From Minisyncoccia bacterium (GTDB lineage Bacteria; Patescibacteriota; Minisyncoccia; Phycocordibacterales; PALSA-1337), in contig JBEKVT010000001.1 of NCBI GenBank assembly GCA_049997795.1, forward strand, positions 101,067-165,066: a DNA stretch of 64,000 nt, written 5' to 3'. The notes beneath the pieces are model-generated. The model ran no database searches and was not told the origin of the DNA. It worked only from the letters and a program-made list of their open reading frames with translations. The translations under genes and the position numbers were made by a program. Shown here in pieces: positions 1,082-47,273 of this stretch (within the stretch, counting starts at the first letter, position 1; each line of letters opens with the position of its first letter).

Positions 1082-1858
1082 ATGCCTCCGATCCGTGCCT
1101 TGTACAACACGATCCTCGACGCTCTTTTCCCCGTCCCGAAAGCCGAGGAAGAGCTGTCATCTCTCACGCCCGAAACGGCCTTCGAGGTCCTGCCGCGCGC
1201 CCCGGCATACACGGGGCTTGCCGTTTCTTTGCCGGAAGCGCGCTCGATATTCGCCTATAAGGACGAGCGGGTCTCGAAGCTCGTCTGGAGCCTGAAATAC
1301 AAGAGATCGGCCCGCGCAGCCGCTCTGGGCGGGTACGCGCTTTGGCGAGAATTATGCGCGGGGGCGGGAGTGATGTGTGTTCCGGTGAAAATTCACTTAC
1401 CAACCGGCCAGACCGGACCGATAAATCACTCTGCTTCGTCCTTTGAATTTTCACCGGAACACACATCACTCCCGCTCCATGCCATCATCATATCCATGCC
1501 GATCACGCCGCGCCGACGGCGGGAGCGCGGCTTCAATCAGTGTGAGCTTCTGGTCGACGAGATAGAGCGCCTCGATAAGGACGGGCGATTCGCCATCGAA
1601 AAGAACCTGCTCATGCGCGTCCGTCACGCCTCGCGCCAGACGCTGAAGGGCCGGACCGACCGCCTGTCCAGCGCCAAGGGAGTATTCGCAGTGAATGGAG
1701 AGGCGGCCGCGAGATTAAGGAGCTCGCCGCGATTCGAAGAGATGTCGATTGTCGTCATCGACGATGTCATCACCACGGGCAGCACAATGCGGGAAGCCTT
1801 GGATGCCTTGAAAAAGGCCGGCTTCGCAAAAATATCCGGCCTGTCGCTGGCGCACTAG
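1082..1858 (+). CDS. comFC: ComF family protein (phosphoribosyltransferase domain, competence)
   Basis: C-terminal PRTase motifs (RGFNQCELL, IVVIDDVITTGSTMREAL) are present. The upstream in-frame start at 953 would overlap the divergent pilM start. Start 1082 (MPPIRAL) sits 8 nt after a TATACT -10. The start is uncertain. Confidence 0.6.
   Translation: MPPIRALYNTILDALFPVPKAEEELSSLTPETAFEVLPRAPAYTGLAVSLPEARSIFAYKDERVSKLVWSLKYKRSARAAALGGYALWRELCAGAGVMCVPVKIHLPTGQTGPINHSASSFEFSPEHTSLPLHAIIISMPITPRRRRERGFNQCELLVDEIERLDKDGRFAIEKNLLMRVRHASRQTLKGRTDRLSSAKGVFAVNGEAAARLRSSPRFEEMSIVVIDDVITTGSTMREALDALKKAGFAKISGLSLAH
1364..1475. repeat. 32-bp perfect inverted repeat (gcgggagtgatgtgtgttccggtgaaaattca ... 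tgaattttcaccggaacacacatcactcccgc) with a 48-nt loop, embedded in-frame inside the comF coding sequence
   Basis: Read directly from the sequence. The arms are 1364-1395 and 1444-1475. The comF reading frame continues through it. Confidence 0.7.
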
Positions 1859-8383: not shown

Positions 8384-8473
8384 TGGCGGAGACGGTGGGA
8401 TTCGAACCCACGAGGGAGTTTCCCCCCTAACACCTTAGCACGGTGCCGCTTTCGACCGCTCAGCCACGTCTCC
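8384..8473 (-). tRNA. tRNA-Ser (anticodon GCU), 90 nt including an encoded CCA
   Basis: Manual fold: acceptor GGAGACG/CGUCUCC, anticodon loop GUGCUAA, a long variable arm and T-arm GGGUUCGAAUCCC. Confidence 0.8.
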
Positions 8474-8579: not shown

Positions 8580-10814
8580 ATGCCGCTTTCTCTCGAAACG
8601 CCCTTGAACGAACGCTTCCGCCTGACTCAAGCGCAGAGGGACGCCCTGCGGCGCCTCGGCATATCGGATGTGAGAGACCTCCTCTATCACTTCCCCGTCC
8701 GCTACGGCGACGTGGCGGAATCGCGGAACATCAACACGCTCGAGAAGGGCGACGTCGCCGTGGTCTTCGGCAAGGTCTCCGGCCTCAAAGCCTCGAAGGG
8801 CTGGAAGTCGAAGGTGGCCATGGCCGAGGCGGACGTCAAGGACGAGACGGGTAAGATCCACTGCGTCTGGTTCAACCAGCCGTACCTGGCCAAGATGACG
8901 CCTGAAGGAGCCTCGGTGCGCCTCGAGGGCCGGGTGTCGCAGAGGAGGGGAAGCGGCGAGCTGTATTTCTCGAATCCGAAGATCGAGGTCGTTAATGAAT
9001 TGCCGTCCGGCGCTCCCGATTCCCTTTTCGGCGAAGGCGAAGGGGCGCACAATCTGTATCCGGTCTATCCGGAATCGCGCGGCATAAGCTCGGCTTGGCT
9101 CTATCACAACATCGCCAAGCTATTCAAGGGCGGCATCCTGGAAGAGTTGGAAGATCCTCTGCCCGGTCATATCTTGGTCAAATATCATCTGCCGAACGTC
9201 CGCACCGCCCTGGTCTGGATCCACGCGCCCAAGAAGAAAGAGGACGCCGAGGCGGCCCGGAAGCGCTTCGCCTTCGAGGAGATATTCATCATCCAATTGT
9301 CCAGGCAGAAGGCCAGAGCGGAATACCGGCGGAATCCGGCTTTTGTCATCGAGCCATCGAAGAGGTCGGTGGAGGAATTCGTGCGGCGATTTCCCTTCAA
9401 GATAACGGCCGCCCAGAAGCGCTCGATAGACGCCATCCTCGGCGACTTCGCCCGCGACGAGGCCATGACGAGATTGCTTGAAGGCGATGTCGGGAGCGGT
9501 AAGACGGCCGTAGCCGCAGCCGCGGCCTTCGCCGCCGTGACCACCAGGCCGTCGCTCGTCCGTCCGGACGGCATGCGCGTACTCCAAAAGTTCGGTAGCC
9601 TACAAGTCGCCTACATGTGCCCGACGGAGATCCTGGCCGCCCAACATTTCGAGTCATTCATACAATATTTCTCATATCTAGGAATCCGTATCGGCCTTAT
9701 CACCTCCTCTGGCTGTAGGGTCTTCCCTTCGAAAGTGAATCCCAAGGGCTCCACCGATATCTCAAAGAATCAACTGCTCTCTTGGGTGGCAAACGGGGAA
9801 ATCCCAATCCTGGTCGGCACTCACGCTCTCATCCAGAAGTCAGTCACTTGGAAGCATCTGGCTTTCGTCATCATTGACGAACAGCACCGTTTCGGCACGG
9901 CCCAGCGGGCGCGGCTGCTCATGAAACACCTGGAGCCGCCGAAGAAAAAGGTTTCTCCGGATCTTTCTCCCTCGCCCGTTCCTCACTTGCTCTCGATGAC
10001 CGCCACGCCCATCCCGCGCACCTTGGCTCTGACTCTGTACGGCGACCTCGACCTGACTCTCCTAGACGAGATGCCGGCCGGCCGCAAGCCGGTCGTGACC
10101 GAGATCGTCTATCCGACCAAGCGTGCCGAAGTCTACGAGAAGATACGCCGCGAGCTTGCGGCCGGCAGGCAAGCTTACGTCATCTGCCCGCGCATAGACG
10201 AGCCTGACCCGGCCAAAGAAGCGGCCATCATCGCCAAATCCGTCAAGGAAGAGGCCAAGCGCCTGAAGAAAGACGTCTTCCCCGAATTCGAGATCGGCGT
10301 CCTCCACGGCAAGATGAAGCCGGATGAGAAAGATGCCATTATGGACGGCTTTAGGAAGGGCCACATCCATATCCTCTGCTCGACTTCTGTCGTCGAAGTG
10401 GGCATGAACGTGCCGAATGCCACGGTCATGGTCATCGAAGGCGCCGAGCGGTTCGGCCTGGCCCAATTGCACCAATTCCGCGGCCGGGTCATGAGGAGTT
10501 CCGATCAGGCTTACTGCTATTGCTTCGCCGAGACGACTTCCGAGAAGTCCGTCGAGCGTTTGAAGGCCTTGAAGACAGCCAAGAACGGCTTCGAGCTCGC
10601 CGAATTCGATCTTACGCAGCGCGGGGCCGGCGAATTATCCGGCGCCAGGCAATGGGGAGTCTCCGACATAGCCATGGACGCCCTCCGGAATCTGCGCCTG
10701 GTAGAGGCCGCCAGGACCGAAGCGGTCCGCCTCATAACCGAAGACGCCGAATTGACCAGGCACCCCGCCCTCAAAAGACTGATCGAGAGCGAGACGGTGG
10801 CGCATTTCGAATAG
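8580..10814 (+). CDS. recG: ATP-dependent DNA helicase RecG
   Basis: 744 aa with an N-terminal wedge region, helicase motifs (GDVGSGKT, DEQHRFG) and a RecG-like C-terminus. Confidence 0.85.
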   Translation: MPLSLETPLNERFRLTQAQRDALRRLGISDVRDLLYHFPVRYGDVAESRNINTLEKGDVAVVFGKVSGLKASKGWKSKVAMAEADVKDETGKIHCVWFNQPYLAKMTPEGASVRLEGRVSQRRGSGELYFSNPKIEVVNELPSGAPDSLFGEGEGAHNLYPVYPESRGISSAWLYHNIAKLFKGGILEELEDPLPGHILVKYHLPNVRTALVWIHAPKKKEDAEAARKRFAFEEIFIIQLSRQKARAEYRRNPAFVIEPSKRSVEEFVRRFPFKITAAQKRSIDAILGDFARDEAMTRLLEGDVGSGKTAVAAAAAFAAVTTRPSLVRPDGMRVLQKFGSLQVAYMCPTEILAAQHFESFIQYFSYLGIRIGLITSSGCRVFPSKVNPKGSTDISKNQLLSWVANGEIPILVGTHALIQKSVTWKHLAFVIIDEQHRFGTAQRARLLMKHLEPPKKKVSPDLSPSPVPHLLSMTATPIPRTLALTLYGDLDLTLLDEMPAGRKPVVTEIVYPTKRAEVYEKIRRELAAGRQAYVICPRIDEPDPAKEAAIIAKSVKEEAKRLKKDVFPEFEIGVLHGKMKPDEKDAIMDGFRKGHIHILCSTSVVEVGMNVPNATVMVIEGAERFGLAQLHQFRGRVMRSSDQAYCYCFAETTSEKSVERLKALKTAKNGFELAEFDLTQRGAGELSGARQWGVSDIAMDALRNLRLVEAARTEAVRLITEDAELTRHPALKRLIESETVAHFE

Positions 10815-10815
10815 T

Positions 10816-10887
10816 GCACGCGCCAGGACTTGAACCTGGAACCGATCGCGTATAAGGCGACTGCTCTACCATTGAGCTACGCGTGCG
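10816..10887 (-). tRNA. tRNA-Ile with anticodon UAU as encoded (possible Ile2-type), 72 nt, CCA not encoded
   Basis: Manual fold: acceptor GCACGCG/CGCGUGC, D-arm GCUCAAUGGUAGAGC, anticodon loop CUUAUAC and T-arm CCAGGUUCAAGUCCUGG. Confidence 0.65.
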
Positions 10888-12934: not shown

Positions 12935-13086
12935 GCAATGCCAGAGAATCGCGGATTCATTATGTCCACCGGGAAGCAGGTCCTCGCCTATCGTCGGGGG
13001 CTCATGTTTGGCATTGCGAGAGAGTAATAAGATTTAGACCAAGATACCAAACACGAGCCCCCGACATCCGGGGGCTCGTTTCGTTG
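12935..13086 (+). ncRNA. Candidate structured RNA (riboswitch-like leader or small ncRNA) bounded by a promoter and an intrinsic terminator
   Basis: A 10-bp closing stem (cgcaatgcca/tggcattgcg) encloses further hairpins. A possible anti-terminator segment gtcgggggctc is followed by the terminator acgagccccc-gacatcc-gggggctcgt-UUUCGUU (13052-13086), then AAAGGAG and ATG at 13123. The RNA class is not recognised. Confidence 0.35.
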
Positions 13087-19558: not shown

Positions 19559-19924
19559 TGGTGGAGATGGCGGGAATCGAACCCGCGTGCAATCGAAGCG
19601 AACCGGACGGTTCTACGGCGGTAGTCAGGTTTGATGTCTGACGGCCGTGCTCGAAACGAGACAAAACACATGGCCGCGATCTCTTTGATTCGGATGGCGG
19701 AGTGAGAAGCTCCGCCGCCCTACATCCAGGTTATGACATCGCACTACGGTAAGGATCCCCGTAGATAGACGCGCTCTACTTAAGCGAGAGCGAATGCAAA
19801 GTCCTTCGCTCCGAAATACGGAGAAACGGTTGATTTGGCACTTCAGATTTGGAACGGATTTGCGAGTCATTCCGGCTCGCGCCGCCCGAACGGACGCCGG
19901 CGATTGTCTATGCCGATCATCCCC
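19559..19924 (-). ncRNA. ssrA: tmRNA (ssrA), ~366 nt
   Basis: The 5' end GGGGAUGAUCGGCAUAGAC resembles the tmRNA 5' consensus. The 3' end is tRNA-Ala-like, GGUUCGAUUCCCGCCAUCUCCACCA. The internal tag frame ...GCG AAG GAC UUU GCA UUC GCU CUC GCU UAA gives (A)KDFAFALA*. The ORF-track hits inside this region are spurious. Confidence 0.85.
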
Positions 19925-46089: not shown

Positions 46090-46716
46090 TCAGTTCTTGG
46101 CGACGATCTCGACCAACGTGCCCCGGCGGCCGGGAACCGCTCCGGAAACGTAAAGGATGCTCTCTTCCGGATCGACGTGCACGACCTTCAAGTTCGTGAC
46201 CGTCACCCGGTCCGAACCCATCCTGCCGGCCATCCTGGTACCGACTGGCACGTGAGTGCGCAAGCCGCCGCCGATTGAGCCGGGCTCGCGCTCGGAATGC
46301 TTCTGGCCGTGGGAACGCGGACCGCCGTGGAAGCCGTGGCGCTTGACCACGCCCTGGAAGCCTTTGCCTTTGGAGATGGCGGAGACTTGGACGACGTCGC
46401 CGGCCTTGAATTGGGAGAGTTCCAGCTTGTCGCCGACTTTGGCCGTCGGTCCGCCGGCTGGCGGATCCGTCCGGAATTCCTTGACCGAAGCGAAACTGCC
46501 CAAATCTTTCCACTGGCCCTTCTGGGGCTTAGCGATGCGGCTTGCGTGCCGCGAGCCTTCGCCGACCTGCACGGCTTCATAGCCGTCATTCTCCTTGGTG
46601 CGGACTTGAGTGACGACGTTGCCGCGCACGAGGACGGCCGTAGCGGGGATGGCGGCGCCGGAGGCGTCATAGATCTGGGTCATATTCAGCTTTCTTCCGA
46701 TAATGAATTTCATGAT
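46090..46716 (-). CDS. rplC: 50S ribosomal protein L3
   Basis: MKFIIGRKLNMTQIYD matches the L3 start. The track ORF to 46833 is a spurious extension into the structured spacer. Confidence 0.85.
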   Translation of the reverse strand: MMKFIIGRKLNMTQIYDASGAAIPATAVLVRGNVVTQVRTKENDGYEAVQVGEGSRHASRIAKPQKGQWKDLGSFASVKEFRTDPPAGGPTAKVGDKLELSQFKAGDVVQVSAISKGKGFQGVVKRHGFHGGPRSHGQKHSEREPGSIGGGLRTHVPVGTRMAGRMGSDRVTVTNLKVVHVDPEESILYVSGAVPGRRGTLVEIVAKN

Positions 46717-46722
46717 CTTTAC

Positions 46723-46845
46723 GAACGGTAGCGGATGTCCTTCTCGATACGCGGAAAGTTTTCTGCAGAAAACTTTCCTAATCCTCGACGATTCTCTGCT
46801 GAGAATCGTCTGCGGACATATCTCGAAAGACATCCGCTACCGTTC
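46723..46845 (-). other. Structured intergenic element between rpsJ and rplC: a 17-bp outer stem enclosing two perfect hairpins (three-way junction)
   Basis: Outer stem gaacggtagcggatgtc/gacatccgctaccgttc. Inner palindromes are ggaaagttttctg-cagaaaactttcc and gacgattctc-tgct-gagaatcgtc. Confidence 0.55.
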
Positions 46846-46853
46846 TTTCAAAA

Positions 46854-47273
46854 CTACATCATCTTGACGTCGATGTTCACGCCGGACGGAAGGGAGAGAT
46901 TGGTCAGGGCTTCGATGACCTTCTGGTTCGGGTTGACGATGTCGATCAGGCGCTTGTGCACCCTCATCTCGAACTGCTCGCGGGCGTTCTTGTCTATGAA
47001 CGACGAGCGGTTGACCGTGTACTTCTTGATCTCGGTCGGGAGGGGCGTCGGGCCGTGGATCACGGCGTCGTAACGGGCAGCCGTGTCCATTATCTGGCGC
47101 AAGCTGGCATCGAGGATCTTGTGCTCGTAGGCGCGCACCCGGATCCTAAGGTGCGGCACTTCGCCTGCCGGCTTGGCCTTGCGCGAGCGCACCGGCTTTC
47201 CGGCCGACACGGACTTCGCTGCGGCGGATGGCGCGGCGGCTTTCTTCTTGGTTGTTTCTTTCGCTGTCGCCAT
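46854..47273 (-). CDS. rpsJ: 30S ribosomal protein S10 with a ~35-aa basic N-terminal extension
   Basis: The core LRIRVRAYEHKILD... matches S10. Confidence 0.85.
   Translation of the reverse strand: MATAKETTKKKAAAPSAAAKSVSAGKPVRSRKAKPAGEVPHLRIRVRAYEHKILDASLRQIMDTAARYDAVIHGPTPLPTEIKKYTVNRSSFIDKNAREQFEMRVHKRLIDIVNPNQKVIEALTNLSLPSGVNIDVKMM

Follow-up and report, generated by a model that had tools for sequence, protein, structure and literature searches.

Palindromic sequences lodged within translated genes have been described in several forms. Rickettsia palindromic elements (RPEs) and intragenic miniature inverted-repeat transposable elements, or MITEs, are palindromic insertions of ~100-150 bp that are read through in frame and occupy a surface-exposed part of a housekeeping-type protein, and RPEs form families with many copies in unrelated genes (PMC10969869). 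Template-switch mutations, of the kind known as Ripley-type quasipalindrome correction, arise when one arm of an inverted repeat templates the other (PMC8604942, PMC8794818, PMC13100816); they homogenize the arms and can extend them into the flank (from 5 to 16 bp in yeast REG2), reversibly invert the spacer and produce multi-residue changes in proteins (PMC8604942). Two further sources add that template switching can expand inverted repeats (PMC13100816) and can create and maintain hairpins (PMC8794818). Intragenic invertons, in which inverted repeats surround a short coding segment whose frame is kept both ways, are also known (bioRxiv 10.1101/2023.03.11.532203). Here, a hairpin inside the competence gene comF is compared with these systems. 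The gene lies in a stretch of 64,000 nucleotides from a Minisyncoccia bacterium (contig JBEKVT010000001.1, positions 101,067 to 165,066), hereafter the window, and its host belongs to the Patescibacteria, or candidate phyla radiation (CPR), being Paceibacteria-like and with a reduced genome. In natural transformation, single-stranded DNA (ssDNA) is bound by ComFC, and the conservation of com genes extends across CPR phyla (PMC10633639).

Taken as a whole, the evidence favors, with a probability of about 0.5, a reading in which the hairpin is a lineage-specific, single-copy, in-frame insertion of 108 nt, with a stem partly templated by host sequence, that became established in a permissive loop of the protein. 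The features on which the argument rests are the following.

1082..1858, plus strand: comF, encoding a ComF/ComFC-family, phosphoribosyltransferase-like protein of 258 aa (open reading frame, Pfam, NCBIfam and homologues).
1361..1395, plus strand: left arm, 35 nt (inverted-repeat detection).
1361..1375, plus strand: outer 15 nt of the left arm, GGGGCGGGAGTGATG, ancestral comF codons G-A-G-V-M.
1376..1483, plus strand: segment absent from the closest orthologue, 108 nt or 36 codons (DNA and protein alignment).
1396..1443, plus strand: loop, 48 nt, with a small internal hairpin (CCGG at 1404-1407 and CCGG at 1413-1416).
1444..1478, plus strand: right arm, 35 nt, the outer 15 nt being 1464-1478, CATCACTCCCGCTCC.
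1364..1480, plus strand: encoded peptide GVMCVPVKIHLPTGQTGPINHSASSFEFSPEHTSLPLH, ComF residues ~95-133, a predicted disordered surface loop.

Alignment with orthologues bears out the proposal that the segment is an in-frame insertion, but not its assumed length of ~37 residues, since the closest orthologue lacks exactly 108 nt, that is, 36 codons (window 1376-1483). This orthologue (locus L001, protein cluster P0002; compared loci are prefixed L and protein clusters P) shares 86% nucleotide identity with the window gene over the aligned length, the gap corresponding to gene positions 295-402, and outside the linker the two host genes have diverged by 17%. The missing segment consists of the inner 20 nt of the left arm, the 48-nt loop, the whole 35-nt right arm and ATGCC, and the empty site of L001 reads GGAGCGGGAAAGATG followed directly by ATCATAGTG. 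In the left arm, the outer 15 nt (GGGGCGGGAGTGATG) are homologous to GGAGCGGGAAAGATG of this insert-free gene and, because they are present in the empty site, they represent ancestral comF sequence, of which the outer 15 nt of the right arm (1464-1478) are an inverted copy. Moreover, the substitutions of the window lineage that changed AAAG to AGTG are common to both arms, and the right arm keeps the A of L001 where the left arm now has G1363; therefore, the arms were made or homogenized after the split from L001. From this it would follow that the G1363 mismatch arose later, in the left arm that served as the template.

The arms at 1364-1395 and 1444-1475 are exact reverse complements of 32 nt around a 48-nt loop, as stated in the preliminary description, and the inverted repeat extends further, to 35-nt arms (1361-1395 and 1444-1478) around the same loop. 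In this stem, 34 of the 35 positions form Watson-Crick pairs and the only remaining one, G1363·T1476, is a G·U wobble on the mRNA (sense) strand, a degree of arm matching that no dinucleotide shuffle of the window reached. The folding energy, whose calculation had been proposed, is that of a very stable hairpin, with a minimum free energy (MFE) of -76.7 kcal/mol as RNA (z -10.7) and, for the hairpin region as DNA, -45.6 kcal/mol (z -9.6); none of 200 shuffles folded as well. When the 64 kb were scanned for MFE with a correction for GC content (3,194 overlapping segments of 130 nt), only two extreme outliers emerged, the hairpin, at about -6.7 sd, and an intergenic structure, so that the hairpin is the sole intragenic one.

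The comF reading frame does run through the hairpin without interruption (1082-1858, 258 aa). The identical 777-nt gene is present on four of the loci examined, from three JGI samples and one ENA assembly, and the exact ComF protein is found on 23 contigs from independent samples; an artefact of assembly or amplification is excluded because the identical gene recurs across independent JGI and ENA assemblies. A fifth locus, that of the cluster representative (L008:908-1025), differs by a single left-arm polymorphism, G1368T (Gly to Val), which breaks one stem pair and is accompanied by no compensating change. On the minus strand, an antisense open reading frame of 101 aa (window 1164-1469) overlaps comF and owes its existence to the palindrome, since the arms yield the same VMCVPVKI/EFSPEHTSLP peptides on both strands, and such a frame is a likely source of spurious gene calls.

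The insertion occurs as a single copy in everything that was searched, which does not bear out its suggested resemblance to RPEs. The search for further copies of the arm returned none in the 64 kb at up to three mismatches, and blastn-short over ~140 kb of compared loci found no second copy of the element; together, these searches covered ~7-9% of the genome, with which a very low copy number is compatible. All six frames of the element, four of which contain stops, were compared with 5.8 billion protein clusters, a database that contains the proteins of this organism, and only its own ComF cluster, P0001, was returned, a 90%-identity cluster of two members that both have the plus orientation. 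In phage and plasmid collections blastn found no match, and a viral scan with a 20-mer gave one lone chance match. Scans of genome and metagenome contigs with the 20-nt inner arm gave single-arm chance matches in unrelated organisms and, as they did not contain the own locus, are uninformative about dispersal. Searched at gathering thresholds and again at E<=10, Rfam yielded nothing for the hairpin itself (1361-1478), the one weak match in the searched region lying downstream. No terminator-like site was found at 1361-1490 on either strand, the stem being followed by ATGCCATCATC with no U-tract, and scanning and inspection revealed no attC-like, terminator or promoter consensus features at the hairpin.

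No target-site duplication was found at the flanks of the insert, where no direct repeat is longer than ATG and this ATG does not fall in register with the 108-nt gap; the window insert likewise lacks terminal repeats that would be independent of the host gene. An 8-nt palindrome, ATGATCAT, which might have seeded a template switch, stands at the junction of the L001 empty site. Two further ideas were rejected. A duplication of the region of the downstream beta-strand and RRRRERGFNQ as the origin of the inner arm and loop is unsupported by alignment statistics, and a translational bypass between take-off and landing ATG codons at 1373 and 1479 would shift the frame at landing and destroy the conserved phosphoribosyltransferase (PRTase) motifs.

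The host gene encodes a protein with a PRTase domain (Pfam PF00156, 8.1e-08, above the cut-off) and matches NCBIfam TIGR00201, comF, at 1.6e-21, yet under the curated cut-off. Its 490 homologues, where named, are ComF/ComFC proteins of Patescibacteria (Taylorbacteria, Paceibacterota, Parcubacteria) and Paceibacteria; the canonical N-terminal Cys4 zinc finger is absent from the 258-aa sequence as read by eye. The gene order pilM (minus), comF (plus) and tyrS (minus) is conserved beside type IV pilus (T4P) genes, and pilM and T4P genes upstream place comF in a competence and T4P neighborhood. The extra segment had been placed between the N-terminal region and the PRTase core, and this location holds: in an AlphaFold2 model (pTM 0.80), the inserted peptide is coil, preceded by a confident helix (77-94) and followed by the first strand of the core (134-138). 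The mean pLDDT of successive 10-residue blocks over residues 91-130 is 68, 53, 47 and 45, with residues 115-128 below 50 and flanks above 89, so that the loop is predicted to be disordered. Among 120 homologues, the length of this linker ranges from 34 to 101 aa, and 0-65 extra residues are tolerated in relatives.

The same loop has received hairpins repeatedly. Judged by peptide signature, hairpin-type inserts are present in ~19 of the 120 homologue clusters (~16%), with remnants in 4-5 more, and they fall into four or more families unrelated in sequence. The insert in L006 (P0094; L006:10262-10365) has 39-nt arms that are 95% complementary and a 26-nt loop, and its left arm begins in host-like codons of the helix end. 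Another, in L022 (P0092; L022:2259-2410), has 44-nt arms that are 95% complementary and a 64-nt loop, with an MFE of -93 kcal/mol. Its left arm aligns with the ordinary linker of a relative, P0087, the match covering ~30 of 44 nt at the protein level, and the 36-aa gap in that alignment equals the loop (64 nt) plus the right arm (44 nt), that is, 108 nt, the same size as the window insertion. In L022, the whole left arm is apparently host sequence, to which a loop and an inverted copy of the arm would have been added. A third type, a larger family termed comF-Y, is carried at this loop by L002, L003, L004, L017 and L018 of related Paceibacteria, and the sequences of the window, L006, L022 and comF-Y are mutually unrelated. 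In the window, 6 codons separate GGYAL from the start of the left arm, and 4.7 codons separate the end of the right arm from the PxPIT strand motif; all the loop hairpins start 2.7-6 codons after the GGYAL helix and end 0.3-7.3 codons before the PxPIT strand. A back-translation inverted-repeat test on the linkers detects near-perfect hairpins only (window, P0094, P0092), the bulged stems of comF-Y escaping it, so that it gives no census. In L006, the conserved KHALAV codons upstream of the linker and RRERGF codons downstream of it pair with each other over 17 nt at 94% complementarity (L006:10213-10229 and 10406-10422).

The comF-Y inserts are located as follows.

L002:920-1062, plus strand: comF-Y, a Y-shaped structured insert.
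L003:288-430, plus strand: comF-Y, a Y-shaped structured insert.
L004:2567-2706, plus strand: comF-Y, a Y-shaped structured insert.
L017:471-613, minus strand: comF-Y, a Y-shaped structured insert.
L018:8295-8437, minus strand: comF-Y, a Y-shaped structured insert.

Each folds (MFE -85 to -89 kcal/mol, z -7.5 to -10) into a three-way junction that bears two hairpins and closes on a long outer stem; the junction core of ~74 nt reads GGGACGYUUCGGA … GAGAACCAGCCGC … GACGGCGUGUCC. Translating the reverse complement of 'family A' (…GRFG..EGEPAA…DGVS…) gives the 'family B' peptides (…RDTPSTSAEVAAGSPSPSLSPKRPENSLPPP…) and, therefore, comF-Y sits in comF in both orientations, with one open frame in each. 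In the ComF tree, both orientations, half-remnants, arms-only remnants and empty sites are intermixed among close relatives. Compensatory double changes affect 27 of 54 pairs across the five sequences, as compared with 10.8±2.3 in column shuffles and 4-7 in slid registers, and the outer stem covaries with the host codons that it overlaps (TTTG/PVVV, TITG/PVIVV, TTAAG/PAAVV). Over 41 junction columns, pairs of loci whose comF genes are 59-80% identical overall are 90-100% identical, the same gene pairs being 79-88% identical at codon position 2 and 28-66% at position 3. Because the two orientations encode different peptides, what is constrained in comF-Y is the nucleic acid rather than the peptide. 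The strand asymmetry of G·U over A·C pairs, 19:7 overall and 7:0 in the orientation-B loci, comes from few independent pairs and is no more than suggestive.

A covariance model (R1) found comF-Y only at comF in the ~140 kb of compared loci, and its peptides occur only in ComF among the 5.8 billion protein clusters. Rfam gave nothing at or near threshold for the comF-Y loci, its one match over the L003 element scoring 19 bits against a gathering value of 50, and a HMMER search of the comF-Y peptide against 50%-identity representatives returned only low-complexity repeat proteins and missed the ComF representatives, which makes it uninformative. Two decay products were observed, an unstructured right half kept in L023 (475-534; …SPKRPENSLPPP…) and an arms-only remnant in L020 (669-719; TTTTGSGNEVVV), and therefore comF-Y can be lost piecemeal. 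The window hairpin does not belong to comF-Y: with filters off, R1 scored 28 bits on both strands by the outer stem only, skipping 71-74 core positions. The two elements are alike in their codon-level position, in an outer stem that overlaps host codons, in in-frame translation, in a net length of ~100-108 nt and in having one copy per locus, but comF-Y has a three-way-junction core of ~74 nt with two covarying hairpins, whereas the window hairpin has a mostly unstructured loop of 48 nt.

The second structure outlier of the window lies at 46723-46845 on the minus strand (folded over 46705-46860; MFE -82.1 kcal/mol, z -11.3). It is Y-shaped, its outer arms being 27 nt long and its two inner hairpins perfect (loops AGCA and UGCA), and it fills the gap between rpsJ and rplC; its end lies ~10 nt upstream of the start codon (ATG) of rplC, with which it shares an open frame. 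In architecture it is similar to comF-Y, the R1 scores of 34 bits (minus strand) and 17.5 bits (plus strand) coming mostly from stems, and homology in sequence is unproven.

Regarding the origin of the window hairpin, template switching, that is, fold-back or strand-switch copying by DNA polymerase between the arms of an inverted repeat during replication, could have created it or extended and perfected it. The right arm would then be an inverted copy of comF codons that already existed in the left arm. The insertion would have been kept since its net length is a multiple of three, its frame is free of stops and it fell in a disordered, tolerant loop, where it would be translated as an unstructured filler of 36 residues for which no dedicated function is required. 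Template switching is favored because host-derived and near-perfect arms, concerted changes of arms and codons, and spacers in both orientations match its outcomes. Perfect arms, extension into the flank, concerted coding changes and spacer inversion are all seen in the window or in comF-Y. In the window, a pre-existing arm is found for 15 nt, the outer ones, the inner 20 nt lying outside that match, and L022 offers an independent case of this anatomy. Arm homogenization with spacer inversion is clear in comF-Y, the window showing near-perfect arms and shared changes and having no known flipped relative. From these likenesses we infer both the mechanism and the near-neutrality of the insertion. 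In a transposon-sequencing study of Saccharibacteria, com genes did not contribute to fitness, being dispensable for growth in this cultivated CPR relative (PMC10633639), and by analogy this would be consistent with relaxed constraint on comF.

Several observations weigh against this account. For the 68 nt made up of the inner 20 nt of the arm plus the 48-nt loop, there is no significant match in comF of the window or of L001 on either strand (z -1.3 to +1.3), nor was a source detected in any other place searched, so that only part of the 108 nt is accounted for by simple local inverted duplication. In scale, the published coding cases of template switching, from yeast, involve arms of 9-16 bp and spacer changes of 2-5 bp, whereas the comF hairpins, with arms of 35-44 bp, spacers of 26-75 nt and a net gain of 108 nt, go beyond them. 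Seeding of hairpins by paired conserved flanks was significant only in L006 (z -4.5) and not in 10 other comF loci, and was thus rejected as a general cause. The enrichment of hairpins at the ComF loop suggests a site-specific cause beyond tolerance, because ~16% of related ComF genes carry one here though in-gene hairpins are otherwise absent from the 64 kb. Furthermore, the conservation of the comF-Y core is not explicable by template switching alone, and neutral mutation does not fully account for the recurrence of hairpins or for this conservation.

According to the main rival of template switching, the hairpin is a functional nucleic-acid structure in comF, selected as mRNA (as an RNase III target, a translational pause or a determinant of stability) or as ssDNA or a cruciform, the window hairpin being one of several convergent or fast-evolving solutions. 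At least four unrelated hairpin families recur at this loop, whereas the 64 kb are otherwise free of intragenic hairpins; comF-Y shows compensatory changes in 27 of 54 pairs and a junction core that exceeds the conservation of host codon position 2; and the one imperfect pair in the stem of the window hairpin is, on the sense strand, a G·U. We nevertheless regard such a role as unlikely, since the closest orthologue and ~80% of homologues do without a hairpin, comF-Y decays to unstructured halves or arms-only remnants (L023, L020), the population variant has an uncompensated polymorphism in one arm, the varying orientation of comF-Y relative to the mRNA argues against a cis-acting mRNA role, and neither a terminator or promoter signature nor an Rfam family was found. 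A broader version, in which the ComF loop of Paceibacteria is a niche for structured elements, comF-Y being a functional RNA or ssDNA that is embedded in frame and works in either orientation, and the hairpins of the window, L006 and L022 being analogues or replacements tied to competence, with a role, for example, in the control of comF expression or as a cis-acting ssDNA site, seems quite unlikely. Competence genes are recurrent targets of mobile elements, and a site-specific selfish element or its relic, homing-like at comF or spread by transformation and homologous recombination, would fit the patchy presence among close relatives, the scatter of comF-Y over the ComF tree with a single copy per genome, and its conserved core with variable arms, found in both orientations and only in comF. 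For the window hairpin this is decidedly unlikely: it shares no core with comF-Y and has no relative in any search; no target-site duplication, host-independent terminal repeats or associated enzyme was identified; and four unrelated sequences would require four elements with the same target.

Two described systems fit the hairpin poorly. A programmed intragenic inverton, whose 35-bp arms flip the 48-nt spacer to give the isoforms …KIHLPTGQTGPINHSASSFEF… and …KIQRTKQSDLSVRSGRLVSEF…, would account for the frame of the loop being open in both orientations and has a parallel in the repeated evolutionary flipping of the comF-Y spacer, but an open flipped frame over 16 codons has a probability of ~0.46 by chance and is not significant. 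In the loci examined there is no heterogeneity of orientation, four being identical and the fifth differing by one polymorphism, and both members of the two-member protein cluster are in the plus orientation though the cluster would absorb a flipped form; no recombinase has been linked to the element, no invertase search having been made, and isoforms of a peptide in a disordered loop are unlikely to differ in function. This reading is therefore very improbable. The idea that a dispersed palindromic repeat of the RPE or MITE kind landed in frame in comF, to which the ~110-nt size, the palindrome, the in-frame surface-loop insertion and the reduced genome lend a likeness to the Rickettsia elements, is largely refuted and retains hardly any credence. 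RPEs have tens of copies in unrelated genes with a conserved encoded peptide, while the window element is unique in the data searched, matches only its own ComF in six frames, has stops in four of them, derives its arms partly from the host and shows no clear target-site duplication.

If template switching is the correct explanation, the window hairpin is a natural example of a protein that gained 36 residues in one or a few steps, and it would raise the known scale of protein innovation by this route, so far a few base pairs, to ~100 nt, the genome concerned being that of a streamlined CPR bacterium. In either case, unrelated hairpins with 35-44-bp arms at the ComF loop of about one in six related genomes, as well as comF-Y, which is conserved, orientation-flipping and restricted to comF, are undescribed in Rfam and in the literature searched. 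The ComF loop is thus either a mutational hot spot or the seat of a structured element, hitherto undescribed, that lies within a coding sequence, and it makes testable how long intragenic palindromes originate and survive, and whether nucleic-acid structure can be a selected feature of a translated segment. Such inserts also inflate the apparent divergence of proteins and create spurious antisense reading frames.

Other features of the window include a third inverted repeat, intergenic, at 12993-13065, with 22-nt arms that are 91% complementary and a 29-nt loop; it is followed by a second copy of GGGGGCTCGT, which could form an alternative stem, an arrangement that suggests a terminator or attenuator. 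On the minus strand are found a tmRNA (19559-19924), a tRNA-Ser(GCT) (8384-8473) and a tRNA-Ile with the anticodon TAT (UAU) (10814-10886), an uncommon way of reading AUA in bacteria.

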